A stretch of 36,628 bases of DNA from Bacteroidota bacterium (lineage in GTDB: Bacteria > Bacteroidota > Bacteroidia > Flavobacteriales > Flavobacteriaceae), in assembly GCA_046050185.1 (NCBI GenBank), contig JBJOQF010000016.1, positions 1 through 36,628 on the forward strand, written 5' to 3'. A program made the position numbers and the translations under genes. Each line of letters starts with the position of its first letter. The first letter of the stretch is position 1. The notes beneath the pieces are model-generated. The model made no database searches, had not been told where the DNA came from, and saw nothing but the letters and a program-made list of their open reading frames with translations. Shown here piece by piece: positions 5,079 through 27,523 of this stretch.

Positions 5079-5083
5079 ATAAT

Positions 5084-5509: not shown

Positions 5510-5531
5510 AAAGTAAAATTATGAAAAAATT

Positions 5532-5942: not shown

Positions 5943-5959
5943 AATTTATTTTTTTTATG

Positions 5960-6673: not shown

Positions 6674-6680
6674 ATTTTAA

Positions 6681-9589: not shown

Positions 9590-12010
9590 ATGGCAAAGTA
9601 CAAACACATCCTGTTTTTTAACGAAATTGGCATTGAAGCCATTGATAAAGTTGGCGGTAAAAATGCATCACTTGGAGAAATGTATAACCAACTCAATCCA
9701 ATAGGTGTCAGCGTACCTAATGGATTTGCAGTTACTGCAAAAGCCTATCGCCTCTTTCGTGAAGCAAATAATCTGAAAAAAAATCTTGACGATTTATTAT
9801 TTTCATTAGATACAAAACAGTATTCTAATCTTTCTTTAATTGGAGAAAAAGCCAGAAATCTTATTTTATCAGCCAAAATTCCATCAGAAATTCGGGATGA
9901 AATACGAGTTGCTTATCAATCACTTTGTGAACAATGCGGTATAAATAATCTTGATGTAGCGGTACGAAGCAGCGCTACATCTGAGGATTTACCAACGGCT
10001 AGTTTTGCGGGTCAAATGCAATCTTTTTTAAATATTAACGGTGAAAATCAATTGCTGGATGCGGTACACCGCTGTTTTGTATCCTTATTTACGGATCGCG
10101 CTATAAAATACCGCCATGACATGGGCTTTGCCAAAATAGATATTGCTATTTCCGTTGGGGTACAGCAAATGGTTCGAAGTGATAAAGCATCTTCTGGCGT
10201 AGCATTTACAATTGATCCTGATAGCGGATTTGAAAATGTCATCATCATCAACAGCATTTGGGGATTAGGCGAAAACATTGTTCAAGGTACTGTTACACCT
10301 GACGAATGGATGGTTTTTAAACCTACTTTGGAAAACCCGGATTTAAATCCCATTCTAAAAAGACAGTGCGGGAAAAAAGAATTTACAATGATTTATGCCG
10401 ATAAATCAGCAAGCACATCCGCAGAAAACACAATTGTTAATACTGACACTTCCTTAGAAAAACAAAACCTGTTTTCGCTAGACGACAATGAAGTTATTCA
10501 GCTTTCTCGATGGTGTTATAAAATTGAAAAACATTATAAAAAACCAATGGATATTGAATGGGCAAAAGACGGTTTAAATAACCAACTTTATATCGTTCAG
10601 GCACGACCGGAAACCGTTCATGGAAAAACAAATAAGCAAGTTCGGGAAATCTATAAACTAAAAGAAAAAGGCACAATTTTGACACAAGGAATTGCTCTTG
10701 GCGACAAAATTGCTTCGGGAAAAGTACGCATTCTAAACAGTCCGCAAGAAGGCCATTTATTACAAGAAGGAGAAATCATAGTTACTGATTTGACTAATCC
10801 TGATTGGGATCCCATCATGAAAAAAGCTTCGGCGATAATTACTAATAAAGGCGGGCGCACAAGTCATGCCGCCATTGTAGCACGAGAACTGGGAACTGTG
10901 GCTGTAGTAGGCTGTGGTAATGCAACTTCCATGTTAAAAAATGGACAAGAAATTACCGTTTCCTGTGCTGAAGGTAAAGAAGGATATATATATAAAGGAT
11001 TACTGAAATGGGAAATAACTGAACAGGATTTCAGCAAACTTGAAATGCCAAAAACAGACCCTATGCTTATTCTTGCCGACCCGGAAAGAGCATTTGCATT
11101 AAGCCATTATCCCAATCAGGGTGTAGGTTTGATGCGAATGGAATTTGCTATTTCGAATACTATAAAAATTCATCCGTTGGCATTGTGTGAACCTGAAAAA
11201 ATAACCGATGAGAAAATTGTTGCCAAAATAGCCGTATTAACCAAAGGCTATGAAAATCCTAAAAATTATTTCATTGATAAACTAGCCGAAGCAGTCGCAA
11301 TTGTAGCTGCCGCTTTCTATCCAAAAGATGTGATTGTACGAATGAGTGATTTTAAAAGCAATGAATATGCTAACCTCATCGGAGGGGAATATTACGAACC
11401 TCAGGAAGAAAACCCAATGATAGGATTTCGCGGTGCTTCCCGCTATTACAGTGATTTTTATCGAAAAGGGTTTGCTTTGGAATGCGAAGCCATGAAAAAA
11501 GTACGAAATGAAATGGGACTTCTCAATGTAAAACTGATGATTCCGTTTTGCAGAACAGTCGAGGAAGGCGAAAATGTACTTACTGAAATGACTAAAAATG
11601 GATTAGTGCAAGGCATCAACGGACTGGAAGTATATGTCATGATTGAAATTCCAAGTAATGTATTAATGGCCGATGAATTTGCAAAACTCTTTGACGGATT
11701 TTCAATTGGTTCCAATGATTTAACTCAACTCACATTAGGTTTAGATCGCGACTCTGCATTAGTGAGCTATTTGTTTGATGAGGAAAATCCAGCCATAAAA
11801 TATTTAATTAAAGAAACTATTCGGGTCGCCAAACGTTTTGAAATAAAAGTAGGACTGTGCGGACAGGCTCCAAGCGACATCCCACAATTTGCTAAATTTT
11901 TAGTAAATGAAGGCATTGACAGCATTTCATTTAATCCTGATGCTTTGATAAAAGGAATTGAAAATATTTTGGAAGCAGAAAAGAAAACAAAAAGAAAAAT
12001 TTTAATGTAA
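9590..12010 (+). CDS. ppsA: Phosphoenolpyruvate synthase (pyruvate,water dikinase)
   Basis: VGGKNASLGEM, VAVRSSAT.EDLP.ASFAGQ, phospho-His motif GGRTSHAAIVARELG, EENPMIGFRGASRY, SIGSNDLTQL. Confidence 0.96.
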   Translation: MAKYKHILFFNEIGIEAIDKVGGKNASLGEMYNQLNPIGVSVPNGFAVTAKAYRLFREANNLKKNLDDLLFSLDTKQYSNLSLIGEKARNLILSAKIPSEIRDEIRVAYQSLCEQCGINNLDVAVRSSATSEDLPTASFAGQMQSFLNINGENQLLDAVHRCFVSLFTDRAIKYRHDMGFAKIDIAISVGVQQMVRSDKASSGVAFTIDPDSGFENVIIINSIWGLGENIVQGTVTPDEWMVFKPTLENPDLNPILKRQCGKKEFTMIYADKSASTSAENTIVNTDTSLEKQNLFSLDDNEVIQLSRWCYKIEKHYKKPMDIEWAKDGLNNQLYIVQARPETVHGKTNKQVREIYKLKEKGTILTQGIALGDKIASGKVRILNSPQEGHLLQEGEIIVTDLTNPDWDPIMKKASAIITNKGGRTSHAAIVARELGTVAVVGCGNATSMLKNGQEITVSCAEGKEGYIYKGLLKWEITEQDFSKLEMPKTDPMLILADPERAFALSHYPNQGVGLMRMEFAISNTIKIHPLALCEPEKITDEKIVAKIAVLTKGYENPKNYFIDKLAEAVAIVAAAFYPKDVIVRMSDFKSNEYANLIGGEYYEPQEENPMIGFRGASRYYSDFYRKGFALECEAMKKVRNEMGLLNVKLMIPFCRTVEEGENVLTEMTKNGLVQGINGLEVYVMIEIPSNVLMADEFAKLFDGFSIGSNDLTQLTLGLDRDSALVSYLFDEENPAIKYLIKETIRVAKRFEIKVGLCGQAPSDIPQFAKFLVNEGIDSISFNPDALIKGIENILEAEKKTKRKILM

Positions 12011-12020
12011 TACTTCTATT

Positions 12021-12776
12021 ATGGAAACAATATTCAAAAATAAAGTGGCAATTGTAACTGGCGGCTCATCAGGAATTGGTAAAGCTACAGCTCTTGTTTT
12101 TGCAAAAAAAGGAGCTAAAGTAGTTGTTGTGGATTGGGTAGAAAACAAAGAAACAGTAAACTTCATTAAAGAAATGGGTGGAGAAGCCATTTTTATCAAA
12201 TGTGATGTATCAAAAACTGCTGATGTTAAAGCTATGGTAGCGGAAACCATTGCCACTTTTGGAAGATTAGATTATGCCTTTAACAACGCTGGAATTGAAG
12301 GAATATCAGCCTCTACGCAAGATTGTACCGAGGAAAATTGGGACAAAACCATTGGTGTAAACCTAAAAGGAATTTGGCTTTGCATGAAATATGAAATCCC
12401 TGAAATACTGAAACAAGGAAAAGGTGTGATTATCAATTGTGCCTCTGTTGCAGGATTAGTAGGATTTGCCGGTTTACCAGCTTATGTAGCATCAAAACAT
12501 GGTGTTGTAGGATTAACAAAAACCACTGCTTTAGAATGTGCTAAAATCGGAATTCGAGTAAATGCTATTTGTCCAGGAGTAATTCAAACCCCCATGATTG
12601 ACAGACTTATCGGAAACAGTAAAGAAGCCGTAGCACAATTTACAGGCTTGGAACCTGTTGGCCGTTTTGGTCAACCTGAAGAAATAGCTAACGCAGTAGT
12701 TTGGATGTGCTCAGATGAAGCTTCTTTTGTAACCGGTCATGCCATGGCTGTTGACGGTGGTTTTGTAGCGCAATAA
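12021..12776 (+). CDS. Classical short-chain dehydrogenase/reductase
   Basis: TGGSSGIG, NNAG, YVASKHG (YxxxK), VNAICPG, VDGG. Confidence 0.93.
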   Translation: METIFKNKVAIVTGGSSGIGKATALVFAKKGAKVVVVDWVENKETVNFIKEMGGEAIFIKCDVSKTADVKAMVAETIATFGRLDYAFNNAGIEGISASTQDCTEENWDKTIGVNLKGIWLCMKYEIPEILKQGKGVIINCASVAGLVGFAGLPAYVASKHGVVGLTKTTALECAKIGIRVNAICPGVIQTPMIDRLIGNSKEAVAQFTGLEPVGRFGQPEEIANAVVWMCSDEASFVTGHAMAVDGGFVAQ

Positions 12777-12803
12777 ATTAATTATAATAGTAATTCCTGC
12801 TTT

Positions 12804-14543
12804 ATGATTTCCATCAAAAATAAAATAGAGCACCATCTTTTGGATTATGAAAAAGTGCAAAATTCTTTTTCATGGGAAACAATTGCCCAAGAATTAAGCG
12901 GTCTTCCCAATGGAAAAGGATTGAATATCGCTCACGAAGCTGTAGATATCCATGCTAAGAGTCATCTGAAAGATACGGTAGCGCTTCGTTTTATTCGAAA
13001 AGACAGAAACTTTCATGATTTTACTTATGCTGAATTACAAATTCAAACATCAAAATTTGCTAATGCACTTCATAATTTAGGCATCCAAAAAGGAGAGCGT
13101 ATTTTCTCTTTGGCAGGAAGAATTCCCGAATTATACATTACTGCTTTGGGAACTTTGAAATATACGGCAGTATTTTGTCCGTTATTTTCTGTTTTTGGTC
13201 CTGAACCTATTTTTCAAAGACTCAGCAAAGGCGATGCATCCGTTTTAGTGACAACTTCAGCTTTATTTGAAAAGAAAATAAAACAAATACTCGATAAACT
13301 TCCTTTGCTTCGTTATATCCTTATCATTGATGCCAAAGAACATGTTTCAGAGAAAATAGTGTCTTTCCAAAAATTAATGGAACAGGCAAAAGAAGATTTT
13401 ATTATACCAGAAACGAATCCTGAAGATGCCGCCCTACTCCATTTTACAAGTGGAACTACCGGAATGCCAAAAGGTGTTTTACACGTTCACAAAGCGGTAC
13501 TTACCCATTATATAACAGGCAAATATGTTCTCGATTTTCATCAGGAAGATTGGTTTTGGTGTACTGCTGATCCGGGTTGGGTTACCGGCACTTCTTATGG
13601 AATTATTGCTCCGTTACTACATGGAATCAGCAGTATTGTTGATGAGGAAGAATTTGATGCCGCAAGATGGTATTCCTTACTGGAAGAACACAAAATAACA
13701 ACTTGGTACACTGCTCCTACCGCCATCAGACGATTGATGCGTATGGATATAAAGCCTTGTGAAGAATACAATCTTAAAAATCTTAGGTTGATTTTGAGCG
13801 TGGGCGAACCACTACATGCCGAAGCTGTTATTTGGGGAGAAGAAAACTTTGGCTTTCCTATTCTTGACAATTGGTGGCAAACCGAAACAGGTGGTATTAT
13901 GATTGCTAATTATCCTTCGATGAAAGTAAAACCCGGTTCCATGGGAAAACCTTTGCCCGGAGTGGAAGCTGCAATTGCTGAAGTAAATGACAATCAACTA
14001 AAACTAAAACTAAAGACCAAACCTAATATTCAAGGACATTTGGTTTTAAAAAAAGGATTCCCTTCCCTATTTCGGGCGTATTTACATGAAGAAGAACGTT
14101 ATAACAAATGTTTTATAGGCGAATGGTACCTCAGCGGTGATTTAGCTAAAAAAGATACCGATGGCTATTTCTGGTTCATCGGTCGAGCTGATGATATTAT
14201 CAAGACTTCAGGACACATGGTAGGACCATTTGAAGTTGAAAGTACTTTGATGCGGCATCCTGCGGTGGCTGAAGCGGCTGTGATTGGGAAACCGGAACCT
14301 ACTATTGGTGAATTAGTAAAAGCATTTATAGTCTTAAAAACTGGAAAAGAGCCTAATGAAGAGACAAAAATGGATATTATGGGTTTTGCCCGAAAAGAAA
14401 TGGGACCTGCTGTGGCTCCCAAAGAAATTGAATTTGTAAAAAATATTCCTAAAACCAGAAGCGGAAAAATTTTGCGGCGCTTACTAAAAGCTCGAGAACT
14501 TGGTTTACCGGAAGGAGATATTTCAACATTGGAACAATCATAA
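12804..14543 (+). CDS. acsA: Acetate--CoA ligase / acyl-adenylate-forming enzyme
   Basis: FTSGTTGMPKG, WCTADPGWVTG, DNWWQTETGG, SGD, GRADD, PKTRSGKILRR. Confidence 0.88.
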   Translation: MISIKNKIEHHLLDYEKVQNSFSWETIAQELSGLPNGKGLNIAHEAVDIHAKSHLKDTVALRFIRKDRNFHDFTYAELQIQTSKFANALHNLGIQKGERIFSLAGRIPELYITALGTLKYTAVFCPLFSVFGPEPIFQRLSKGDASVLVTTSALFEKKIKQILDKLPLLRYILIIDAKEHVSEKIVSFQKLMEQAKEDFIIPETNPEDAALLHFTSGTTGMPKGVLHVHKAVLTHYITGKYVLDFHQEDWFWCTADPGWVTGTSYGIIAPLLHGISSIVDEEEFDAARWYSLLEEHKITTWYTAPTAIRRLMRMDIKPCEEYNLKNLRLILSVGEPLHAEAVIWGEENFGFPILDNWWQTETGGIMIANYPSMKVKPGSMGKPLPGVEAAIAEVNDNQLKLKLKTKPNIQGHLVLKKGFPSLFRAYLHEEERYNKCFIGEWYLSGDLAKKDTDGYFWFIGRADDIIKTSGHMVGPFEVESTLMRHPAVAEAAVIGKPEPTIGELVKAFIVLKTGKEPNEETKMDIMGFARKEMGPAVAPKEIEFVKNIPKTRSGKILRRLLKARELGLPEGDISTLEQS

Positions 14544-14592
14544 ATACTATTAGGATACTGAAAATTAATTTTCACTAAAATAAATTTCTATC

Positions 14593-16098
14593 ATGATACC
14601 ATTAAAAAAAATACACTTGAAAAGTAAACTATTTTATTGGTTGATTATCCTTTTGTCGTTTCAAGGATGTCACGCACAGGATAAGAAAAATGAGAAAGAC
14701 ATTGAAGAAATACAAAAAAATAACAGCTCCAATCCTGAGAAAGCTTCCTATACAGGTATTGTAGATTTCAAATTAGCCGCCAAAATAGCCACGCCTGGAG
14801 TAGTACATATCAAATGCCTTTTTAAATCCCAAATACAACGCGATGGGAATGAAGATGGATTTTATAATTTACCTGACCAATTAAAAGAATTCTTTAAAGA
14901 AGAACCTTTTTTAAGACAATTTAAATCCCAACAACAATATGACAATGAACCTGTAATAGGCAGTGGATCTGGCGTAATACTGACAACTGACGGATACATA
15001 ATTACAAATAACCACTTAGTAAAAGATGCAGATGACATTAACATAACACTGTTTGACGGGCGTTCCTATACAGCCAAAATTATAGGCACTGATCCTCAAA
15101 CAGATCTCGCTCTCCTTAAAATTGACGAAAAGAATCTTTCCTTTATTAGGTATGGTGATATTGACACTATTGAAGTGGGAGAATGGGTGGTAGCCGTGGG
15201 GAATCCCTTTAATCTCGCATCAACCGTTACGGCAGGAATTGTAAGCGCCAAAGCCCGGAATATAAATATTTTGAATAATCAGGGCGCTATTGAATCATTC
15301 ATACAAACCGATGCAGCAGTGAATCCCGGCAACAGCGGTGGTGCATTAGTAACATTAGACGGAAAACTAATTGGAATCAATACTGCAATAGCAACACCTA
15401 CGGGAGTTTATGCGGGATATGCTTTTGCAATTCCTGTAGACATTGTGAAAAAAGTCGCCAATGACCTGATGAATTTCGGATCGGTTAAAAGAGGTGTTTT
15501 AGGAATTAGTATCCATGATTTGAACAGCACTCTTGCCAAAGAAATAAATATTGATCGTGCCAATGGTGTTTATGTTGACAGCGTAATGGTAAACGGAGCA
15601 GCAAAACAAGCCGGTATCAAAGAAAAAGATGTAATCATCAGCATTGATAACATTGAAACCGTTTCTGTAGCAAAATTGCAAGAGATTATTATGCGAAAAC
15701 ATCCTGGAGAAAAAGTAAAAATTACACTAATCAGAAATGGTACAGAAAAAAAAGAATTTATCGTAACACTACAAAAACAAGAAGCAATCCCTAAAATTAT
15801 AAAAACCAAAGGAAAAGATTTGCTCAAGGATTTAGGGGTCGAACTTGTTCAAATTAATAAGGAAGACCAGAAAAATTACAATGTTAAAAACGGACTAAAA
15901 GTCACACAATTGTATGAAGGAAAACTGAAAAGATACACCAATATACGCGAAGGATTTGTAATTACATCCGTTAACAATAAAATGGTCTCAACAATTAATT
16001 CCTTTATGGAAGCGGTTGAAACACAAAAAGGAGGCATAATGCTGGAAGGAAAATATGCCGGTGATTCTACATACTATTATTATGCATTTGGTATGTGA
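14593..16098 (+). CDS. HtrA/Do-family serine protease with PDZ domains, probable lipoprotein
   Basis: Catalytic triad TNNH / TDLAL / GNSGG; two C-terminal PDZ-like regions; lipobox-like LSFQG-C. Confidence 0.92.
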   Translation: MIPLKKIHLKSKLFYWLIILLSFQGCHAQDKKNEKDIEEIQKNNSSNPEKASYTGIVDFKLAAKIATPGVVHIKCLFKSQIQRDGNEDGFYNLPDQLKEFFKEEPFLRQFKSQQQYDNEPVIGSGSGVILTTDGYIITNNHLVKDADDINITLFDGRSYTAKIIGTDPQTDLALLKIDEKNLSFIRYGDIDTIEVGEWVVAVGNPFNLASTVTAGIVSAKARNINILNNQGAIESFIQTDAAVNPGNSGGALVTLDGKLIGINTAIATPTGVYAGYAFAIPVDIVKKVANDLMNFGSVKRGVLGISIHDLNSTLAKEINIDRANGVYVDSVMVNGAAKQAGIKEKDVIISIDNIETVSVAKLQEIIMRKHPGEKVKITLIRNGTEKKEFIVTLQKQEAIPKIIKTKGKDLLKDLGVELVQINKEDQKNYNVKNGLKVTQLYEGKLKRYTNIREGFVITSVNNKMVSTINSFMEAVETQKGGIMLEGKYAGDSTYYYYAFGM

Positions 16099-16164
16099 AA
16101 TAAAATCAAAGACAGAAATTAAAACTCACAATATTTAGATTGTTAAACCAATACTAATAAACAC

Positions 16165-17154
16165 ATGGTACAATCAGCCACAATACAGAAACCTATGAAT
16201 GCTAAAAAAGGATTACTTCTTTTTTATCAAATGCTGCTTATAAGACGATTTGAAGAAAAAGCAGCCGAGCAATATACGAAAGCCAAAATTAGGGGTTTTC
16301 TACATTTATATATAGGTGAAGAAGCAGTAGCTGTAGGCGTAATACAAGCTTTAAATGATGATGATAATGTGTTAAGTACCTACCGAGAACATGGACATGC
16401 CTTGGCACGTGGCATTGATCCGGATGTTATCATGGCCGAAATGTACGGAAAACTGGAAGGCTGTAGCCGAGGTCGTGGTGGCTCGATGCATTTGTTTGAT
16501 GTATCAAATAATTTTTATGGTGGCAATGCCATTGTGTGTAGTCATCTTCCTATTGCTGTTGGGATGGCTTTGGCCTCCAAAAAACAAAAGAAAACAAATA
16601 TTACCTGTTGTTTTTTTGGCGAAGGCGCCGCTGCCGAAGGAGTATTTCACGAAGCCATGAATCTGGCTTCACTCTGGAAAGTTCCTGTTTTATTTGTTTG
16701 TGAAAACAATCTATATGCTATGGGAACTGCTATAAAATATTCGCATGCCGTGACTGAGCTCGAAAAAAAAGGGGCAGCTTACGGAATAGAATCTGCTGTG
16801 GTAGACGGTATGGATTTGATCGCTGTAGTGGATGCCGCTAATACAGCTGTCGAAAAAATAAGAAGTAATGGCAAACCTTATTTTTTGGTTTGCAATACAT
16901 ATCGTTTTCGAGCGCACTCAATGTTTGATGCCGAATTATACCGAGATAAAAAAGAAGTGGAGGAATGGAAAAAAAAGGATCCTATTCCGCAATTCGAGCA
17001 GTTTCTTTTGCAACAACAATGGATTACAGAGAATGAAATTGCCGAATTTGAAACTAAAATTGAAACCAAAATTAAGATTGCAGTAAATTTTGCGGAAGCG
17101 GGAACTTGGGAGCCTTTAGACCAATTAACAAAATTTGTTTATAGCGAAATTTGA
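16165..17154 (+). CDS. pdhA: Pyruvate dehydrogenase-like E1 alpha subunit
   Basis: IRGFLHLYIGEEA, YREHGH, GRGGSMH, ThDP motif GEG..N (CENN), TYRFRAHS. Confidence 0.9.
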   Translation: MVQSATIQKPMNAKKGLLLFYQMLLIRRFEEKAAEQYTKAKIRGFLHLYIGEEAVAVGVIQALNDDDNVLSTYREHGHALARGIDPDVIMAEMYGKLEGCSRGRGGSMHLFDVSNNFYGGNAIVCSHLPIAVGMALASKKQKKTNITCCFFGEGAAAEGVFHEAMNLASLWKVPVLFVCENNLYAMGTAIKYSHAVTELEKKGAAYGIESAVVDGMDLIAVVDAANTAVEKIRSNGKPYFLVCNTYRFRAHSMFDAELYRDKKEVEEWKKKDPIPQFEQFLLQQQWITENEIAEFETKIETKIKIAVNFAEAGTWEPLDQLTKFVYSEI

Positions 17155-17219
17155 AATTCATAAAGAAAACTAACCCTAATTTCAATCCTTATTTATTTAA
17201 CTATTAAAAAATTAAAACT

Positions 17220-17492
17220 ATGGAAAACACTACTTTTTGTCAAAGTTGCGGAATGCCACTTAGCACTGAAGAATTAAAAGGTACTGAACATAATGGTATT
17301 AAAAACAATGAATATTGTAAGTATTGCTATGAGGATAGTCACTTTAAGCATCCAGAAATGGATTTAGAAAAAATGAAAAATGCTGTACAAGCTCATATGG
17401 AAAAAGAAAAACTTCCTAATTACATGGTTCAAAGAGCTTTAAAAATTTTACCTGTATTAAACCGTTGGAAAAACAAACATTTTATCATCTAA
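17220..17492 (+). CDS. Putative zinc-ribbon domain protein
   Basis: [25 protein letters not shown] pattern. Confidence 0.85.
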
Positions 17493-17508
17493 AAAATCAA
17501 TTCAATCC

Positions 17509-18507
17509 ATGGAAAATAGTAATGGTAAAATTAAAATCACCTATCGGGAGGCTTTGAAACAAGGTCTTCGCGAAGCATTACAAAATGACGAACGTGTTTT
17601 TTTGATGGGAGAAGATGTGGGCCGTTACGGAGGCGCTTTTGCGGTAAGCAAAGGACTGTTACAAGAATTTGGAGAAGAACGTATTATGGATGTACCGCTT
17701 TCTGAGGCAGGTTTTGTGGGAGCCGGAATTGGCGCGGCAATGGCTGGTATGAAACCAATTATTGAAGTGATGACCGTTAATTTCAGTTTGCTTGCCATGG
17801 ATCAAATTGTGAACAACGCGGCAACCTTACAACACATGTCAGGCGGACAATTGCATGACCCACTTGTAATCCGAATGGGCTGTGGCATTGGTCGTCAGTT
17901 AGGAGCGCAACATTCACACAGTTGGGAACCATTTTATTCCCACATACCAGGATTAATTGTCTTGTCTGTGGGAACACATGAAGATGCGCGGTATATGTTA
18001 CGTGCCGCATTACAAAGCCCAGATCCAGTGGTCCTTTTTGAATATACAGCAATGCTGAATATGGAAAAAGAAATAGCTGTTGACTTAGGAACTGTAACCA
18101 TTTTTAATGCCAAAGTGTTGAGAGAAGGTACAGCTATTTCCATTATTACCTATGGAACAGGTGTTTATAAATGTTTAGAAGCAGCTGCCGAATTAGCGAC
18201 TGTTGGGATTGATGTTGAAGTCATTGATTTGCGAATTTTACGACCATTGGATGAGAAGACTTTCTTGACTTCGGTTGCTAAAACGCATCGGGTACTTGTT
18301 GTGGAAGATGCATGGCGTTCAGTTAGCGTTTCTTCGGAAATCAGTGCCCGTATTATGGAAAAAGGATTTTATGATTTGGATGCTCCCGTACAGCGATTGT
18401 GTGGTGTTGAAGTACCTATTCCCTACTCTGCCCACATGGAAGAAGCTGCCATTCCTCAGAAAAAAGATATTGTTAATACCGTAAAAAAAATGATACGCCA
18501 TGATTGA
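17509..18507 (+). CDS. pdhB: Pyruvate dehydrogenase-like E1 beta subunit
   Basis: [38 protein letters not shown]. Confidence 0.9.
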
Positions 18508-19699
18508 ATTTCTAATGCCTAGTTTGGGTGCGGATATGGAAGACGGCACATTGATTGAATGGAAAAAAAAACCAGGAGATACAGTGAAGCGAGGCGATAT
18601 TATTGCCGAAGTGGAAACACAAAAAGGCCTGATTGAGATAGAAATTTTTGACGAAGGAATTATTGGGGAGTTACTGATTCAAGAAAATACTAAAGTACCT
18701 GTGGGAACCGTAATGGCTACAATAAATCCGAGCGTAGTAATATTAGAAACAAAAGAAAAGGAAATTCCTGAAAAACAACCAATAGCATTACAACCGATAG
18801 AAGAAAAAATAATGGAACCAATTTCCGTTGAAAAAGCCGCAACAATACATTTCAAAGTCTCTCCATTGGCGAAGAGAATTGCTGAAGATAACCATATTGA
18901 CATTTCGCAAATAACAGGAACTGGGCCTGATGGGGCCATCACCAAAGAAGATGTAGACTTTGCGATAGCCGAACGAGAAAAAACAGAAACAGAAAAAATT
19001 GAGAAAATACCTGTTGGAATAGAAAAACGAGGAACTGCAGCAGAAGCAATTCGTTCTGCAGTGGCGGCTGCCATGAGTAAATCTAACAGAGAAATTCCAC
19101 ACTATTATTTGGAGAAAAAAATTGATATGACAAATGCATTGGCATGGTTGCAGGTTGCAAATAGTAAACGTCCCCTAAAAAAAAGGTTGCTTCCTGTCAC
19201 TTTATTACTAAAAGCAACAGCAAAATCGCTTCTTGAATTCCCAGATTTGAATGCTATTTGGGATAATGGTTTACAGCTGAAAAAAGATATTAATATTGGT
19301 TTTGTGGTATCCTTACGTACCGGTGGTATTATCGTTCCGGCTCTTCATCAAGTCAATTTAAAAAGTATTGATGAAATCATGGATGCCTTAAATGATATTA
19401 TTCCGAGAGCTCGAGCATTGAGATTACGAAGTTCAGAATTGAGTGATTCTACCATAACACTTACAAGTATAGGAGATGGTGGGGCTGATTCCGTTTTTGG
19501 TGTAATTTATCCTCCTCAAGTGGCCATTATCGGTTTTGGAAGTATTACGGAACTTCCTTTTGCCAAACATGAAATGATAGGTATCAGATCTTGTATTTCT
19601 GTAACATTGGCTGGTGATCACCGTGCTACAGACGGATTAACTGGCAGTCGGTTTTTAGTTACTTTGAATAAATATTTACAAATTCCTGAAGCCTTATGA
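18500..19699 (+). CDS. pdhC: Dihydrolipoamide acyltransferase E2 (one lipoyl domain)
   Basis: [11 protein letters not shown] lipoyl domain with ETQKG, E3/E1-binding [21 protein letters not shown], catalytic DHRATDG. Confidence 0.9.
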
Positions 19700-19941
19700 C
19701 CGAAAAAAAAATTAGATCCATTATTTTTCAATTACTAAAAAAAATTGCTCCCGACACAGAACCGTCAGCATTGAAACCTGACGAAAATATTCGGGAAATA
19801 CTTTCTATCGATTCTTTTGATACGTTGCAATTCATCGTTGCACTGAATGAAAAATTAGGAATTGAAATCCCAGAACAGGACTATGGAAAAATCACCACTT
19901 TAACAACATTAGTATCTTACATTAGAAATAAAAAACGATAA
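19696..19941 (+). CDS. Acyl carrier protein
   Basis: 81 aa with IDSFD (phosphopantetheine Ser) and GIEIPEQDY; ATGA-coupled to pdhC. Confidence 0.88.
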   Translation: MTEKKIRSIIFQLLKKIAPDTEPSALKPDENIREILSIDSFDTLQFIVALNEKLGIEIPEQDYGKITTLTTLVSYIRNKKR

Positions 19942-19943
19942 AA

Positions 19944-20933
19944 ATGAAAGTATTAGTTTATAGCGTATTAGGTTTTGATAAACCCTTCCTGAAAAAAGCA
20001 GCCCATGGAAATCACGAATTGGTTTTCACGGGTCAGTCTTTGAGTAAAAACACGGTAAACTTTGCCAAAGGCTTTGATGCCGTTTCGCTTTTCACTTCAG
20101 ATGATGCCTCTGAAGCAATATTAGAAAAATTATACATACATGGTGTTAAATATATTGCCTTACGTACTACAGCTTCCGATAATATTGATTTGGCAAGAGC
20201 AAAATCTTTGGCAATAAAAGTAGCTAATATCCCCTCTTATTCCCCTTATTCCGTTGCTGAACTTGCGGTCTCTTTACTATTGGCATTAAACAGAAAACTT
20301 GTTTTAGGTCAAAATTTAATGCAACTAGGCGATTATCGTTTGGATCATTTAATAGGTTTTGATCTACATGGAAAAACAATAGGTATTATAGGAACTGGGG
20401 AAATTGGTGCTGCTTTTGCGAGAATCATGCATGGTTTTGGGTGTAGCCTTTTGGCCTTTGATAAGGACGAAAATAAGGCGTTGATGAATGAAATCCCAAT
20501 CAATTATGCTTCATTGGAAGAGGTTTGTAAAAATTCAGATGTAATTTCCGTGCATTGTCAATTAGATGAAACAACTGACCATCTGTTTAATAAAAACACT
20601 TTTTCGCAAATGAAAAAAGGAATGATTTTTATTAATACAGCTCATGGAAGTATTGTAAATACTGAAAGTTTAGTGGAAGCGATAGAAAATAAAACACTGT
20701 CAGCTATAGGTTTAGATGTTTATGAAAAAGAGAAACCTATATTTTTTCAAGATCATACTGATTCTCCCGTAAGTGATCCTTTGTTTCTAAAACTTCGTTC
20801 CTTTCCAAATGTGATGATTACGGGGCATCAGGGTTTTTTGACAAATGAAGTTTTAGAAGGAATTGCCCATAGCACTATTGCCAATTTAAACGCTTGGGCA
20901 TACACCGGTATGTCTGAAAATGAAATAAACTGA
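19944..20933 (+). CDS. ldhA: D-lactate / D-2-hydroxyacid dehydrogenase family protein
   Basis: YSPYSVAE, GFDLHGKTIGIIGTGEIG, GLDVYEKE, ITGHQGFLT; the canonical NTxRG reads NTAHG. Confidence 0.8.
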   Translation: MKVLVYSVLGFDKPFLKKAAHGNHELVFTGQSLSKNTVNFAKGFDAVSLFTSDDASEAILEKLYIHGVKYIALRTTASDNIDLARAKSLAIKVANIPSYSPYSVAELAVSLLLALNRKLVLGQNLMQLGDYRLDHLIGFDLHGKTIGIIGTGEIGAAFARIMHGFGCSLLAFDKDENKALMNEIPINYASLEEVCKNSDVISVHCQLDETTDHLFNKNTFSQMKKGMIFINTAHGSIVNTESLVEAIENKTLSAIGLDVYEKEKPIFFQDHTDSPVSDPLFLKLRSFPNVMITGHQGFLTNEVLEGIAHSTIANLNAWAYTGMSENEIN

Positions 20934-21033
20934 TTGTTGTTGTTTTTATTTTTAAATAAATGCAAGCTGTTTTTTTTTATTTGCTTATTTTTTTCTAATC
21001 ATGCTATGCTTATAGCATTTAAAATTTAAAAAA

Positions 21034-22140
21034 ATGAAAGGATCTTTTAAACTCGGAAAAGTAGCAGGTATCGGGATATTTGTTCATTGGACTTTCTCTT
21101 TACTTATTTTGTTTATCATTTTCATTAACTACAAAGCTGGTCAGAATACTGCTCAAATAATATGGTCTGTTGCCTTTATTTTATGCATTTTTGTTACTGT
21201 TTTATTACACGAACTGGGACATGCTCTGGCAGCAAAAAACTATAATATAGTCACCAAAGACATTACGCTTTTGCCCATTGGTGGTTTAGCCCGATTAGAG
21301 CGAATACCTGAAAAACCATCCGAAGAATTAATAGTCGCTTTGGCCGGTCCTTTGGTAAATTTCGCCTTGGCATTTATAACAGGATTTTTTATTACACTTC
21401 CTGATACTTCCGAAAAATTGATGGCTGAATTAGCCAATGGTGTAAATGCACATAATTTTTTACTCAATTTCTTTTTAGTCAATTTTTGGTTGGCACTTTT
21501 CAATTTAATTCCAGCATTTCCTATGGATGGTGGCAGAGTTTTACGGGCACTATTATCTTTTAAATTACAACGTCATGTTGCCACAAGAATCTCAGCACGA
21601 ATTGGTCAAATAGTAGCCTTGGGTTTTATCCTTTTGGGATTTTTCACCTCCCCTTTTTTGATTTTTATAGGTATATTTGTTATTGTAGGGGCACAAATTG
21701 AAGCTGATTATACCGAATCTAAATTCATGCTGAAAGGTTTTAAAGTCCATGATGTACTAATGAAAGATTACCAAAGAATTGATGCAAATGAAAAAGTAAA
21801 AAAAGCAGTTGAATTATTATTGAACAGCCAAAACAAGAATTTTTTGATTACTGAAAATGATATTGCTGTTGGAACACTTAATCGCGACCAAATTATAATG
21901 GCACTTTCTAAAAAAGGAGAAGACGAATTCATTTATAATATCATGGATCGAAATTTGATATTTCTAGACAGTAATTCTCTTTTAGAAAATGTCTTTGAGT
22001 TGATACAGCAAAATAAATCAACATTAATGCTAGTTATGGAAAACAATGAACTGGCAGGAGCTTTGGATGTAGAAAATCTTATCGAATTCATTTTAATTAA
22101 CGAGGTAAAAATAAATAAAGCCCATGACGAAAAGCAATAA
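21034..22140 (+). CDS. Site-2 (M50) metalloprotease with CBS domains
   Basis: HELGH, AGP, FNLIPAFPMDGGR, multiple TM segments, C-terminal CBS pair. Confidence 0.92.
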   Translation: MKGSFKLGKVAGIGIFVHWTFSLLILFIIFINYKAGQNTAQIIWSVAFILCIFVTVLLHELGHALAAKNYNIVTKDITLLPIGGLARLERIPEKPSEELIVALAGPLVNFALAFITGFFITLPDTSEKLMAELANGVNAHNFLLNFFLVNFWLALFNLIPAFPMDGGRVLRALLSFKLQRHVATRISARIGQIVALGFILLGFFTSPFLIFIGIFVIVGAQIEADYTESKFMLKGFKVHDVLMKDYQRIDANEKVKKAVELLLNSQNKNFLITENDIAVGTLNRDQIIMALSKKGEDEFIYNIMDRNLIFLDSNSLLENVFELIQQNKSTLMLVMENNELAGALDVENLIEFILINEVKINKAHDEKQ

Positions 22141-23281
22141 TTCCTTTACTGCTCCTAAAAACCTTGAGCTTGTTTTAAGTGGCGAAGATTATTTTTCTCG
22201 ATTAGAAACCATTATCCGTAATTCTCAATTTGAAATCCACATTCAAATGTATCTTTTTGAAAACGATGCAACGGGAAAAAGAATTATTACTGCATTAAAA
22301 GAAGCCGCTTCACGCCATGTTAAAATTTATATCCTTTTAGATGGTTTGGGCTCTTTAACATTTCCCTCTGAGACCCTAAACGAAATGAAACAAAGCGGAA
22401 TTAACATTCGCTTTTTTGCGCCTTTGTTTTCAACATATACCTTTTATCTTGGCCGAAGATTACATCGAAAAGTAGTTGTTGCTGATGCAAAAATTGCTCT
22501 AATTGGTGGTATTAACATCGCCGATAAATACTGCGGAACTCCTACAGAAGCACCTTGGCTTGACTATGCCGTTCAGCTAAATGGTATAATTGCTCAGCCG
22601 CTTCAGGAGTTATGCGTTGCTATTTATTTTAAGAAAATACGCTTTCAAAACAAAAAAATAAAATCAGCATTTCATGTTCAGGACGATACTTTGGTACGCA
22701 TCATTCAAAATGACTGGTTAAAACGAAAAACCGAAATTTGCGATGCGTATATAAAGTACATTCGGCATGCAAAAAAAGAAATAATTATAGTAGGAAGTTA
22801 TTTTCTTCCAGGCATACGAATCATTCAAGCCTTGAAAAAAGCTTCCAAAAATAATGTAAAAATAAAATTAATTCTATCCGGGATTTCAGATCTTCCTTTG
22901 ACCAGACGTGCCACTTGTTTTCTTTATGGTAAATTACTTAATTACAATATTGAATTGTATGAATGGGACAAATCTATTTTACACGGAAAAACGGCAGTTA
23001 TTGATGGATACTGGACTACAATAGGCTCTTTTAACCTGAATAATTTAAGTTCGTACGGAAGCCTCGAAATGAATGTTGAAATAAATTCTGCTGCATTTTC
23101 TAAAATGTACCAAATACATCTCGAGGAGATTATTGTACAATGCCAGAGAATAACTCCGGAATCCCTAAAAATGAAAAGTAATATATTCTCGAAATTCATT
23201 AACCTGATATCGTATTGTATTACCCGAATAATAGAACTAATTGTCACTTATACGCCCCATAAACGTTTCTATAATTCATAA
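22124..23281 (+). CDS. clsB: Cardiolipin synthase B-like phospholipase D
   Basis: Two HKD motifs (LHRKVVVAD, LHGKTAVID), GGINI, GSFNL; no N-terminal TM segments. Confidence 0.8.
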   Translation: MTKSNNSFTAPKNLELVLSGEDYFSRLETIIRNSQFEIHIQMYLFENDATGKRIITALKEAASRHVKIYILLDGLGSLTFPSETLNEMKQSGINIRFFAPLFSTYTFYLGRRLHRKVVVADAKIALIGGINIADKYCGTPTEAPWLDYAVQLNGIIAQPLQELCVAIYFKKIRFQNKKIKSAFHVQDDTLVRIIQNDWLKRKTEICDAYIKYIRHAKKEIIIVGSYFLPGIRIIQALKKASKNNVKIKLILSGISDLPLTRRATCFLYGKLLNYNIELYEWDKSILHGKTAVIDGYWTTIGSFNLNNLSSYGSLEMNVEINSAAFSKMYQIHLEEIIVQCQRITPESLKMKSNIFSKFINLISYCITRIIELIVTYTPHKRFYNS

Positions 23282-23391
23282 ATCCAATTGCATTTTTGAG
23301 CAAAATATAAAAAGGTCATTTAAGTTTTATGGAATAAAAATAATACTGGAAAAATTAGTGTTATCAGTACCGTTTATTTAAATATTTTTTG

Positions 23392-23399
23392 TAACTTTA
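23392..23399 (+). promoter_or_regulatory. Possible Bacteroidota -7 box for the 41-aa ORF
   Basis: TAACTTTA, one mismatch to TAnnTTTG, about 80 nt upstream of ATG 23478. Confidence 0.35.
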
Positions 23400-23477
23400 G
23401 ATGTGCTTTAAATAATTTAAAACACTAAAAATAAGCATTTTATAAATTTTTAAAATATAAATTTAGAATTTAAAAAA

Positions 23478-23603
23478 ATGGAACCACATCGAATAAAAAC
23501 TAAAAAAAAAGAGGAATGGATTCAAAAGGATTTCGAGAATAAAATCCCGAAATTAGATCAAAAAACACTATTTCTTCCCAGTCAGGATGAATTGTTCTTT
23601 TAG
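23478..23603 (+). CDS. Unannotated 41-aa small protein upstream of the retron RNA
   Basis: ATG after A-rich leader TTTAAAAAAATG; MEPHRIKTKKKEEWIQKDFENKIPKLDQKTLFLPSQDELFF*; below the ORF-track cut-off. Confidence 0.5.
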   Translation: MEPHRIKTKKKEEWIQKDFENKIPKLDQKTLFLPSQDELFF

Positions 23604-23624
23604 TTTATCTCTCAAATAAATTTG
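23592..23624 (+). promoter_or_regulatory. Bacteroidota housekeeping promoter for the ncRNA-RT unit
   Basis: Perfect -7 box TAAATTTG (23617-23624) with TTG at 23592-23594; predicted start near 23630, right where the structured region begins. Confidence 0.6.
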
Positions 23625-23629
23625 TTTAC

Positions 23630-23789
23630 ACAGGTTAGCAACGGAGCCGTGAGTCACTGTTCTGTAATTGAATGCTCTTTCAAGCACCAGGTTTAAAAGA
23701 TTCTCCGCAGAGCTACGAACTTTTAAACCGGTATTCTTAATTGGGGTTAGGGACAAAATAGTCCCTGCTCCATTAACGATTTAAGCCCT
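23630..23789 (+). ncRNA. Putative retron msr-msd RNA
   Basis: GC-richer structured segment directly 5' of a retron RT. Long hairpin ACC(A)GGTTTAAAAG(A)TTC 23686-23703 / GAACTTTTAAACCGGT 23717-23732; hairpin AGGGAC/GTCCCT 23749-23766; end pairing GTTA..GGAGC (23634-23647) with GCTCC..TAAC (23767-23777); TTAGC at 23635-23639 as candidate branch-G context. Confidence 0.7.
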
Positions 23790-24851
23790 ATGGATTTTAT
23801 TCAATACAAAGAAGCCTTTAGACATGATGCCCATAAAAAAGGCTATTTAGAACAGAATATTCAGCGCTGTCTGGATTATGCTGAAGTTTTATTTGCACAT
23901 GATATTCCTGTAATTTATAATCCAACCCATTTATCACTTTTGGTTGGATATAAAAAAGAATTTCTAAAAAAAGCGGCTCTTTATCCCAAACGTTATTATC
24001 GCGATTTTGAGATTTTCAAAAAAAATGGCAGCAAACGACTTATTTCTGAGCCACTTCCCAGTTTGAAAGAAATCCAAATCTGGATTCTAAGAAACATCCT
24101 TTATAAAGTGCCCGTTAGCCCTTTTGCGAAAGCATACAAACCTAATATAAGTATCCTGGAAAATCTTAAATTCCATAAAAACCAACTCAAAGTTTTCACG
24201 CTGGATTTAGAGCATTTCTTTCCTTCTATTGGCTTTGAGGTGGTTGAAAAAGAATTTCTTGAAATGGGATATTCCAAAATGGTCTCAAAACTGCTTTCAA
24301 AATTATGCATCCGTGATGGAAGTTTACCACAAGGTGCGCCAACGAGTCCCTATCTTTCGAATTTGATTTTCAAAGAAGCCGATGCGGTGATTTCTGATTA
24401 TTGTATCCAACATAAAATAAGATACACCCGTTATGCTGACGATTTGAGTTTTTCCGGAGACTTTGATGAAAATAAGCTACTCCATAAAGTAACTGAAACC
24501 ATCGAGAAATTAAATTTTCATCTCAATAAAACCAAAACCAAACTCATGACGCCTGACTGCCGCCAAACTGTTACGGGTATTGTGGTTAATGAAAAACCGC
24601 AGGTCGTATTTCATAAACGTAATGATTTGAGACAGGCCATGTATTATATCAAGAAATTTGGTTTCGAAGAACACCGGGAATACAAAGAGATTGACCAAAA
24701 GAATTATCTGGAACATTTGTTAGGAAAAATAAATTTTGTACTGCAAATAAACCCAAGTGACACTGAATTTATAGGCTACAAATCCATACTGATTGACTTA
24801 AAAAAGAAACAGGATTTAAAAGCGATGGAAGATGAATTATTGCCAATATGA
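23790..24851 (+). CDS. Retron-type reverse transcriptase
   Basis: KKNGSKRLISEP, region-X-like SILENLKFH (NAxxH variant, 24162-24176), LDLEHFFPSI, LPQGAPTSPYLSN, YTRYADD (YADD 24432-24443), region-Y QTVTGIVVN (VTG 24570-24578). Confidence 0.93.
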   Translation: MDFIQYKEAFRHDAHKKGYLEQNIQRCLDYAEVLFAHDIPVIYNPTHLSLLVGYKKEFLKKAALYPKRYYRDFEIFKKNGSKRLISEPLPSLKEIQIWILRNILYKVPVSPFAKAYKPNISILENLKFHKNQLKVFTLDLEHFFPSIGFEVVEKEFLEMGYSKMVSKLLSKLCIRDGSLPQGAPTSPYLSNLIFKEADAVISDYCIQHKIRYTRYADDLSFSGDFDENKLLHKVTETIEKLNFHLNKTKTKLMTPDCRQTVTGIVVNEKPQVVFHKRNDLRQAMYYIKKFGFEEHREYKEIDQKNYLEHLLGKINFVLQINPSDTEFIGYKSILIDLKKKQDLKAMEDELLPI

Positions 24852-24879
24852 CAGAAATCATACTTATCATAGAAATTCA

Positions 24880-24903
24880 AAAAAGCTCCAAATGGAGCTT
24901 TTT
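24880..24903 (+). terminator. Intrinsic terminator after the RT
   Basis: AAAAAGCTCC-AAAT-GGAGCTTTTT hairpin with U-tract about 30 nt after the RT stop. Confidence 0.8.
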
Positions 24904-24941
24904 AAATAAACACAATCAACTAATTTCAAAATTGATATAAC

Positions 24942-25520
24942 ATGAAAAAAATAACAGTAATTATCGTAACCTTATTTTTCTCTACTTTTCTATTGGCACA
25001 AACAACATGGAAAGCAGATCCGATGCATTCAAAACTAACTTTTAGCACCGTTCACCATGGCATTTCTGATATTGCCGGATTATTCAAAATATTTGAGATA
25101 ACCGCAACAGCCAAAAAAGCTGATTTTAGTGATGCATCTTTTGAACTTTCGACTGAAGTAACCTCCATCAATACCGAAGTGGAAATGCGGGATAATCATT
25201 TGCGAAGTGCTGAATTCTTTGAAGTGGAAAAATACCCAAAAATGACTTTTAAAAGTACTTCCATAAAAAAATTCGGAAAAGAAAAAGGGAAATACAAACT
25301 AATGGGAAACCTTACACTACACGGAATTACCAAGCCTGTTACCCTGAATATGTGGTATAGGGGAACGATAATAAATCCCCAATCAAAAGCAATCACAGCC
25401 GGCTTTCAGTTTAGTGGCATTATAAAACGATCTGATTTTGATATTGGTCCAAAATTTCCTGCGCCAATGATTAGTGATGAAGTAAAAATTAAAGCTGATA
25501 GTGAATTCATCAAGCAATAA
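24942..25520 (+). CDS. YceI-family polyisoprenoid-binding protein
   Basis: Signal peptide ending AQ; WKADPMHS, SINT..RDNHLRS.EFF, GNLTLHGITKPV, IKRSDF. Confidence 0.93.
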   Translation: MKKITVIIVTLFFSTFLLAQTTWKADPMHSKLTFSTVHHGISDIAGLFKIFEITATAKKADFSDASFELSTEVTSINTEVEMRDNHLRSAEFFEVEKYPKMTFKSTSIKKFGKEKGKYKLMGNLTLHGITKPVTLNMWYRGTIINPQSKAITAGFQFSGIIKRSDFDIGPKFPAPMISDEVKIKADSEFIKQ

Positions 25521-25682
25521 TTTTTTTAGTGAATTGAAAAAAAACTTGTCAATAATTTAGATTAGAACAATTACCTAAAAACGCTTTTCTCCTTTTTTCA
25601 GCCTTTAAAAAACATCTCTTTTCAACGACTAATCCACTCACAATAAAATACTTAATTCTTATTTTAACAACAAAAAATTGAT

Positions 25683-25690
25683 TAAATTTG
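25683..25690 (+). promoter_or_regulatory. Bacteroidota -7 promoter box
   Basis: TAAATTTG about 90 nt upstream of the USP gene. Confidence 0.5.
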
Positions 25691-25782
25691 ATAGTAGAAA
25701 TAGTTCATTGGTAGGATATAATTCTTTGTGCTTCCAGAGATTAAAAGGAGTCATTTAACAGTAATTATAAAAATAAAATAAC

Positions 25783-26217
25783 ATGGATAACATGAAAAAA
25801 ATAGTAATCGCAGTTGACAATGACCCCACTTCAGAAAAAATTGCGTTAAAGGGTTTTCAACTCGGTCTTCAACTGAATGCTGAAATTACATTACTAAGCG
25901 TTGTTGATTTGACAATGCTTATAACTGAAAGCGCTGTCATTCCTAAGGAATTTGCTGATATCACCATAAACGACTACAAAAAAAATCAGCAAATACTTGT
26001 TGATACCATATTTAAGGATTATAAAGTTAGGACTTATGTAGAAGAAGGAATCCCACATGAAGTAATTTTGAATGTAGCTAAAGAATGGGATGCCGATATA
26101 ATTGTTTTGGGTACACATGGCAGAACAGGATTTTCACATTTAATCATGGGCAGTGTCGCTGAAAAAGTAATAAGACATTCCGAAATACCAGTATTTATCA
26201 TACCAATTAAGTCCTGA
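25783..26217 (+). CDS. Universal stress protein (UspA family)
   Basis: KKIVIAVD, DIIVLGTHGRTG..MGSVAEKVIRHS..PV; alternative start 25792. Confidence 0.93.
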   Translation: MDNMKKIVIAVDNDPTSEKIALKGFQLGLQLNAEITLLSVVDLTMLITESAVIPKEFADITINDYKKNQQILVDTIFKDYKVRTYVEEGIPHEVILNVAKEWDADIIVLGTHGRTGFSHLIMGSVAEKVIRHSEIPVFIIPIKS

Positions 26218-26330
26218 TTAAAAAATTTCTTCCAAACAATGTATGCGGAAGAAACAATTCATTAATCAATTGTAAATGTAGTTAGTTACAGATTTAATAG
26301 CAACATTGATAATTCTAAAAACAATCCAGC

Positions 26331-27233
26331 ATGGCATTTATAGACTATTACAAAATCCTTGAAGTGGATAAAAAAGCAACGGAAGCCGATATTAAAAAGG
26401 CGTACCGTAAAATGGCACGAAAATACCATCCCGACTTAAATCCAAACGATAAGGAAGCCGAAAGAAAATTCAAAGAAATTAATGAGGCCAACGAAGTATT
26501 GAGCCATGCCGAAAATCGTAAAAAATATGATGAATACGGCGAAAACTGGCAACATGCTGAGCAATATGAACAAGCTAAACAGCAAGGGCAATATTCCAGA
26601 GGTGGACAACAAGATGGTTTTGGCGGATTTAGCGGCGGTGGAGATTTTTCAGATTTTTTTGAATCTATGTTTGGTGGTCGTGCTTCAGGAGGTGGAGGCC
26701 GTCAACGTAATACCCAATTTAAAGGCCAGGATTTCAGTACTGAATTATATCTGGACCTAAAAGACGTTTATACCACCCACAAACGAACCTTAACAATCAA
26801 TGGCAAAAACATCCGAATCACTATTCCTGCCGGAGTAGAGAATGGTCAGCAAATAAAAATCAGCGGACTTGGAGGAGAAGGCTCCGGCGGAGGACCAAAA
26901 GGAGATTTGTATATCACTTTTGCTATTGAAAACCACACTAATTTTAAGCTGGACAAACACAATTTATATTCCACTGTTGATTTAGATTTATACACCGCCA
27001 TATTAGGTGGCGAAATCACCGCAGACACATTTGACGGAAAAGTAAAACTTACGGTAAAATCCGGAACCCAAAACGGAACTAAAATAAAACTGAAAGGAAA
27101 AGGATTCCCTATTTATAAAAAAGAAGGGGAATTTGGTGATTTATACCTTACGTATCAAATACAAATCCCCACAAACCTTACCGAAAAAGAAAAAGAATTA
27201 TTTACGGAACTTGCTAAGTTAAGAACGTCATGA
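26331..27233 (+). CDS. cbpA: DnaJ-class co-chaperone CbpA
   Basis: J domain (DYYKIL..YHPD), G/F-rich linker, C-terminal DnaJ domains, no zinc finger; coupled to cbpM. Confidence 0.9.
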
Positions 27234-27523
27234 ACATAGAAAACCTTATTCCCTTACCTACACTAATTGCCCATTACAAAGTTGAAATGGCATTTTTTAA
27301 CACCCTCAGTGAAATGGGCTTACTTGAAATAAAAACAATCGAAGATACGCAATACATTCACCCTGATGCTATTTTTGAAATAGAGAAAATGATTCGGATG
27401 CATCAGGAATTAGAGGTTAACATCGAAGGAATTGATGTGGTATTCAATCTTTTGCAAAAGATAGAAGACTTGCAAAATGAATTAATCACTGTTAAAAATA
27501 GATTGCGTTTGTACGAAAGTTGA
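27230..27523 (+). CDS. cbpM: Chaperone modulator CbpM (MerR-like HTH)
   Basis: ATGA overlap with cbpA; [23 protein letters not shown]. Confidence 0.88.

Follow-up and report, generated by a model that had tools for sequence, protein, structure and literature searches.

A toxin-less relative of type III-A1 retrons in Flavobacterium that keeps the tail of its winged-helix partner as a separate 41-residue gene

What might a retron reverse transcriptase (RT) do when no toxin gene accompanies it? Mestre et al. (PMC7736814) did not settle whether retrons without a toxin work with partners encoded in trans or have another job, and the question is raised again by a flavobacterial contig (JBJOQF010000016.1 of assembly GCA_046050185.1; the window is the whole stretch of 36,628 nucleotides that was analysed), in which an RT gene preceded by a structured RNA lies among stress genes. 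The features discussed below are the following, in coordinates of the window:

9590-27523: co-oriented gene block, with PEP synthase first, CbpM last and the retron between ClsB and YceI
23387..23399, + strand: candidate promoter of the unit, a TAnnTTTA box differing at one position from the Bacteroidota -7 consensus
23478..23603, + strand: 41-aa micro-ORF, the C-terminal tail of a III-A winged-helix (WH) accessory protein and a predicted RT-docking subunit (PADLOC, alignment, selection, complex model)
23604..23624, + strand: equivalent of the a1 segment of intact relatives, holding TAAATTTG at 23617-23624 and pairing weakly with a2
23623..23683, + strand: msr-like part, with hairpins at 23623-23640, 23643-23663 (GTGAGTCAC core) and 23668-23683 (ending TTCAAGC)
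23690..23775, + strand: msd-like part, a long hairpin at 23690-23729 and a second at 23738-23775, with putative boundaries taken from homologues
23776..23789, + strand: a2-equivalent segment, abutting the RT start codon
23790..24851, + strand: type III-A1 retron RT of 353 aa with an extra helical N-terminal domain (PADLOC RT_III-A, trees, fold, dN/dS)
24880..24903, + strand: 11-bp inverted repeat with a T run, likely an intrinsic terminator (repeat search)

The first-pass annotation, made from the letters alone, had let the unit begin at 23592. Its true start lies about 200 nt further upstream, and the conserved 41-aa ORF, which fell outside those coordinates and was overlooked there, is part of it. 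The block opens with genes for PEP synthase, an SDR, an acyl-CoA synthetase and an HtrA-like protease; its middle comprises pyruvate-dehydrogenase-like E1/E2 genes, with a zinc-ribbon gene between the E1 subunits, and an acyl carrier; and D-lactate dehydrogenase, M50-CBS, ClsB, the retron, YceI, Usp, DnaJ and CbpM make up the remainder. The unit thus has an M50-CBS peptidase and a ClsB-like gene upstream and YceI, Usp and DnaJ-CbpM downstream, domain annotation having found both the ClsB-like and the YceI neighbour that had been named at first sight. ClsB was considered as an effector and set aside: DrmC models match it via the PLD fold only, and it is missing beside several units. Five signalling genes occupy the minus strand at 2721-9005, namely two PAS/hybrid histidine kinases, a short kinase and two single-domain response regulators.

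The RT carries NLKFH (24162-24176), YADD (24432-24443) and VTG (24570-24578) motifs, and its Pfam content is RVT_1 alone, bearing out the early view of a YADD- and VTG-bearing enzyme free of fused nuclease, TOPRIM, TIR or protease domains. Its best PADLOC model, matched over the whole length, is RT_III-A PDLC02942 (508.8 bits), well ahead of the runners-up (other III-A, 327 bits; Ec107-like, 320.5 bits; RT_VI, 201 bits). The nearest solved RT by both sequence and fold is Ec86, the sequence match beginning at residue 39, and the predicted model shows an extra helical N-terminus. PADLOC models, fold and trees alike group the protein with retron RTs, as the first-pass annotation had proposed to check. 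While type III-A comes from PADLOC, subtype A1 comes from a row of the Khan census (PMC10849725) and from ncRNA likeness to Retron-Sda1 and Retron-Bpu1. The census table lists a Flavobacterium granuli RT as clade 2, III-A1, which we infer to be one of the copies studied here (L018), because the F. granuli genome has one such RT and no PRTase.

A type III-A1 retron as described by Mestre et al. in 2020 has an RT of clade 2 together with a PRTase, a WH protein and an ncRNA (PMC7736814). The relatives of the window's RT unit belong to Flavobacterium, and a genome scan yielded 39 loci: two with PRTase and WH, 36 with a whole RT and neither of these, and one (L038) deleted through the unit. In the two intact loci (L031 and L033; RT 62-65% identical) the PRTase and WH genes precede the ncRNA. 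More generally, relatives at 54-65% RT identity combine a PRTase (PDLC02931, 303 bits) and a WH protein (PDLC02974, 118 bits) with the same ncRNA core, and further intact PRTase-WH-ncRNA-RT systems were found in genomes, metagenomes and a plasmid. Integrase/excisionase-like and primase/relaxase genes adjoin the intact systems at L031:63-2428 and L033:81-4485, which thus lie on mobile elements. For the reduced form we pooled 46 units, i.e. the window, the 36 scan loci and nine further loci, leaving out L038 and L066 (decayed), L063 (identical to L021) and L064, L065 and L068-L072 (taken as repeats).

In a careful tree of 44 RTs, which includes 23 of the 46 reduced units and from which three long rows and a nearly duplicate intact one were dropped, a single branch (bootstrap 90, SH-aLRT 79) separates the 23 reduced rows from the rest, and they are nested among intact systems; a quick tree with all 46 agrees (branch support 86). 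The reduced units may share one origin, the tree support lying under the tool's star threshold. Homologues that carry an effector simply deleted here had been named at the outset as grounds against an effector-less retron. Half of this proved true, in that relatives do possess PRTase and WH, but the same loss characterizes all 46 units. The reduced unit is not a fresh relic, because the deletion is old, the 46 units have it in common and purifying selection has acted since.

RT identity to the window tracks the identity of ClsB, M50 and DnaJ (Spearman 0.86, 0.94 and 0.83, respectively), pointing to inheritance together with the stress block. The conservation of neighbourhood that the first-pass annotation had suggested examining is not universal: three units adjoin YaaA rather than the block, giving at least two gene contexts. 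Among 300 Flavobacterium genomes, 21 contain a whole RT of the reduced kind and one a close system that is intact, while the M50 gene, which marks the block, is present in 25. The 25 M50-bearing genomes divide into 19 with a whole RT, one with a deletion, one with an RT remnant and four with no trace in the stretch read, so that the unit is lost or broken in six of 25 while the block persists without it. Three decayed copies could be delineated:

L038, 5500-6540: deletion of the micro-ORF, the ncRNA and the N-terminal half of the RT
L066, 3033-3755: micro-ORF frameshifted, RT truncated
L110, 2296-2466: C-terminal remnant of the RT

The micro-ORF matches positions 67-101 of the PADLOC WH_III-A model PDLC02974 (E 3.7e-8), and its peptide aligns with the tails of 18 full WH proteins, its start falling past their predicted WH core. 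In every one of the 46 reduced units with a whole RT this tail has acquired its own start codon (an in-frame ATG or GTG), and the frame is open over 37-48 aa without a frameshift, with an A at -3 in 37 of them. Across 22 disjoint pairs of reduced units, drawn from 45 of the 46 since L055 was missed by the search pattern, the core of the micro-ORF has a dN/dS of 0.140 (135 synonymous and 121 non-synonymous differences), against 0.139 for the RT, synonymous sites being near saturation in both comparisons. Variation in the micro-ORF peaks at third codon positions (45 units), and its other two frames contain stops in 41 of 45 and 45 of 45 units. In four units (L021, L058, L059 and L060) the stop codon is lost and the frame extends six to nine codons into the a1-equivalent segment. 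Databases hold the peptides as hypothetical proteins only (five of six looked up were there); an unrelated 606-aa protein, P0160, sits in one of the micro-ORF clusters and looks like a database clustering error. A sequence search of the PDB found no relatives of the WH protein or of the peptide, and a fold search with the WH protein gave no match at E<=0.001, HTH regulators matching only weakly. The peptide ends in QxELxF, which we took to resemble a sliding-clamp motif, a reading abandoned when the Q proved not to be conserved. The early option of a "micro-effector" came close, but the small protein is the predicted RT-docking tail of the lost WH partner and not a recognisable toxin.

In the RT, YADD is present in 46 of 46 reduced units and region X reads NLKFH or NLRFH in all of them, rather than NAxxH. 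The first-pass annotation had singled out NLKFH as a special variant; it also occurs in eight of 25 non-reduced rows of the tree set, and because PRTase-bearing relatives are among these it is a trait of the clade.

Between the micro-ORF and the RT, the upstream structured segment that had been noticed at first sight is real. The 168 nt 5' of the RT fold at -51.6 kcal/mol (z -3.46; 0 of 200 shuffles equally stable), and in an alignment of 33 homologues (31 reduced and two intact) two-sided changes affect 18 of 45 pairs, against 9.0 in shuffles, a test that kinship inflates, and 3-7 when the structure is slid. The five hairpins have 95% of cells paired, against 34-53% when slid. The core of this ncRNA is common to reduced units and intact relatives and combines short msr hairpins with long msd hairpin(s) beside the RT, as in retrons; Rfam gave no match near a gathering score. 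TTCAAGC, with which the last msr hairpin ends, borders the RT-DNA regions listed for Retron-Bpu1 and, in putative complementary orientation, for Retron-Sda1 (PMC12548924); by this analogy the msd-like part suggests a template for a two-hairpin RT-DNA of about 100 nt.

At the closing repeat the reduced units differ from their close intact relatives. Significant a1/a2 pairing is seen in 11 of the 13 close intact systems, where the repeat carries compensatory changes, versus 0 of 46 reduced units. An invariant unpaired branching G after a1 was not found in either reduced or close intact units, while such a G is present in a Bacillus plasmid relative (L098). Priming in the reduced units may have been lost or altered, given that a1/a2 closes in none of them and no invariant G follows a1; yet since clear closure is seen in just three of ten more distant intact systems, the weak pairing is a warning and not proof of such a change. 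A circularly permuted ncRNA, in which the 3' hairpin would act as a1/a2 and be followed by the G, was dropped: intact relatives have a conventional a1/a2 on the outside, and the G in question is missing in L030, L036 and L056. In L030 and L036 the loss of this otherwise near-invariant G after the last hairpin goes with a one-base deletion in that stem, just before the RT.

The Bacteroidota -7 consensus is TAnnTTTG (PMC9723704), and a TAnnTTT[AG] box precedes the micro-ORF in all 46 units, 34 of them having the stricter form T(T/C)2-3GTAnnTTT[AG], whose frequency across the genome is 0.061 per kb per strand. The first-pass annotation had instead made a promoter of the box TAAATTTG (23617-23624), which does not hold: TAnnTTTG occurs there in only seven of 46 homologous units, the motif is common in this genome (0.92 per kb per strand), and the box overlaps the a1-equivalent segment and the first hairpin. 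Because the first box precedes the micro-ORF in 46 of 46 units and TAnnTTTG precedes the ncRNA in seven, one transcript probably spans peptide, ncRNA and RT. RNA-run contigs of a 90-95% relative span the unit, although contigs as such are no evidence of transcription; other runs yielded short fragments. As for the terminator claimed at first sight, the inverted repeat and T run are there, but the terminator scan did not list 24880-24903, and a crude script found a similar repeat in nine of 37 loci.

A predicted complex bears on the role of the WH tail. RT and peptide score 0.69 together, versus 0.01 for the best of three controls, where the mark applied is reached by 116 of 157 solved and two of 215 mismatched pairs, counts that apply only approximately to our own alignments. 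The runs share at least 95% of contacts, with partner pLDDT of at least 70. The predicted interface joins RT residues 6-58, 89-94 and 162-165 to peptide residues 14-41 and includes all seven invariant peptide residues; conservation of the RT interface residues is 0.81, equal to that of the whole RT (0.81), versus 0.72 for other N-terminal residues. The peptide is hence predicted to dock on the N-terminal domain of the RT and to fill the WH docking site. Part of the score may reflect likeness to solved retrons, because Retron-Kva2 and Ec86 show comparable contacts. In the type IX Retron-Kva2 an extra RT N-terminal domain (residues 1-45) contacts the C-terminal end of the WH protein, and defence is lost when one or the other is deleted (bioRxiv 10.64898/2026.07.14.738597), whereas in Ec86 the effector tail peptide touches nucleic acids (cited in PMC12746101). 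Retron-Eco11 (III-A3) likewise has a conserved effector tail peptide that defence requires, and the phage helicase UvsW binds its msDNA directly (PMC12746101). Going by these reports, both Kva2 and Eco11 keep a toxin domain (HEPN and PRTase, respectively) tethered via the WH protein; the window unit keeps none.

Compared with type III-A1 the unit has the same RT family, ncRNA core, gene order (WH-ncRNA-RT) and WH tail sequence, but it is without a PRTase, its WH gene is cut to the last ~40 residues with their own start, its a1/a2 is weak, and it occupies a fixed chromosomal site in place of a mobile context. Though built from III-A1 parts, it falls outside the III-A1 system as that is defined. 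That all characterised retrons are tripartite RT/msDNA/effector systems, as the first-pass annotation had put it, overstates the novelty of the locus, because toxin-less ones have been described: effector-less branches are on record (PMC7736814, PMC13712802), among them an Ec107 (Eco5)-like orphan branch of clade 2, sister to III-A1, whose effector is presumed lost (PMC7736814), and Retron-Sda1. The Ec107-like forms are mainly from Bacillota in the SPIRE survey, and the accessible text on them does not mention a retained tail peptide; the window RT scores 320.5 bits for their model against 508.8 for III-A and has an accessory micro-ORF, our trees containing no Ec107 sequence. Closest in kind is Retron-Sda1 of Sphingobacterium, a III-A1 RT without PRTase that makes RT-DNA, with a WH-like C-terminus surviving in an upstream gene; there, however, this end forms part of a DUF3037 fusion with a HipA-like toxin next to it, an arrangement seen about six times and interpreted as recent, and RT and ncRNA are dispensable for the one phage defence seen (PMC12548924). 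In the window and its relatives the tail is a free microprotein under selection in 46 units, with no replacement toxin. A free, selected WH-tail microprotein was not found in the full-text literature, a corpus that has most subscription papers outside its scope. A retron that keeps only the docking tail of its WH partner as a separate gene thus appears new, none having been found in print.

These observations are combined in the following scenario. Descent from PRTase- and WH-bearing systems, loss of the PRTase and of the WH domain, and selection on RT, peptide and RNA structure are very firmly grounded. A III-A1 retron would have lost the PRTase toxin and the WH DNA-binding domain, the last 41 WH residues being kept as a gene whose product would dock on the RT N-terminal domain as a structural clamp; this docking and a single transcript from the 23387 box are likely, going by the complex model and the motif. 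The toxin-free RT-RNA-peptide particle would then still make msDNA, which we consider rather probable, and the msDNA may lure phage proteins that handle DNA, as a decoy that does not kill the cell. A decoy benefit, argued from analogy, is the least supported step and claims a minority share among the functional options; it was chosen because abortive infection needs a toxin and because a phage helicase binds Eco11 msDNA directly. Taken whole, a toxin-free III-A1 remnant particle making decoy msDNA is the best explanation we can offer, at slightly below an even chance. A bolder reading is that of a domesticated retron, with the toxin deleted, the tail freed as a microprotein, a1/a2 relaxed, the particle kept for a non-abortive job, and either non-canonical priming or no branched msDNA. 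This reading is tentative and less likely than not; if true, the selected output would be the nucleoprotein or the DNA itself and not cell death.

The stress-gene setting, the co-inheritance and the absence from viral contigs fit a role for the host equally. Among viral contigs no close member of the reduced clade was found, the best RT being 53% identical, and a PRTase query gave no match; 535 viral-contig stretches do encode retron-like RTs, 80 of which (L114-L193) lie at 27-53% identity. The same three-part particle could accordingly have been domesticated for host stress such as starvation, cold or low oxygen, perhaps without branched msDNA. Its position within the PEP synthase to DnaJ-CbpM block or beside YaaA, its inheritance with these neighbours and the weak a1/a2 speak for this, as does a paper on starvation induction of Ec107, judging by its title as cited in PMC7736814. 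Yet the unit has its own candidate promoter and occurs in two or more gene contexts, the block survives where the unit is missing, and all 46 units have kept YADD, making a stress role unlikely.

Somewhat less likely still is a particle that governs some unlinked effector from a different family, or that serves to neutralise III-A1 toxins arriving on mobile elements. Effectors in trans have been raised for orphan retrons (PMC7736814), and the integrase and relaxase genes beside the intact relatives L031 and L033 would suit neutralisation, although a bound tail peptide would probably block the full-WH site. That the unit lacks a toxin gene in cis, as the first-pass annotation had stated, is correct, no PRTase effector gene being present at the reduced units; its trans-encoded partner was sought as III-A PRTase and full WH families, and failed to appear. 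The window's own genome (79% complete) has no WH except the peptide and no III-A PRTase beyond a 26.7-bit match, a 227-aa gene adjoining a glycyl-tRNA-synthetase-like gene. This gene, presumably ComF-like, was rejected as a cognate PRTase for its low score and housekeeping-like setting. In 21 genomes with a reduced unit no cognate PRTase was found in trans and no full WH, the WH model (positions ~62-101) matching the tail only in 20 of 21. Except for one strong match in G226, from a separate complete retron, PRTase matches there scored 20-28 bits; the two genomes with intact systems reached 273 and 110 bits by the same search. The second retron of G226 (L113:2694-5248) pairs a 425-aa PRTase-like gene, apparently a C-terminal fusion, with a 366-aa RT.

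The 41-aa peptide might itself have become a toxin, held by the RT-msDNA complex and arresting growth when released or translated on infection, in the manner of type VI retrons, which have small-protein toxins (bioRxiv 10.1101/2025.10.22.683967). Addiction would account for persistence, and in none of three decayed loci (L038, L066, L110) has an intact peptide gene survived next to a broken RT, though three are few. Against this, its invariant residues coincide with those that full WH proteins conserve in their tails and are placed towards the RT by the complex model, a whole RT with a dead peptide gene occurs in 0 of 46 units although addiction would allow it, and no HTH antitoxin is seen. 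With 201 bits for RT_VI and no HTH gene conserved beside window-type RTs at the loci examined, the unit also differs from type VI, and we regard a peptide toxin as improbable. A slowly decaying III-A1 relic without present function, to which the loss or decay in six of 25 block-bearing genomes and the weak a1/a2 might point, is very improbable: both ORFs have a dN/dS of 0.14 at nearly saturated synonymous sites, the RNA shows compensatory changes, and all 46 units have retained the new start codon.

Natural deletion has here trimmed a III-A WH protein down to its predicted RT-docking module, which the retained fragment delimits. Other "lone" retron RTs may have overlooked micro-ORFs, here annotated only as hypothetical, and we would guess that III-A1 RTs tested for editing without accessory genes, as in the Khan census, might improve with the tail peptide. 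The question of toxin-less retrons can be tested in this group, because culturable Flavobacterium species offer intact systems resembling the ancestor, the reduced clade, and strains that have lost the unit naturally. The flank of the unit varies in one further respect: in three species (L015:218-5455, L017 and L020) M50-ClsB is replaced upstream by a secreted endonuclease I / exo-endo-phosphatase protein of 1745 aa, which ends in a type IX secretion tail.
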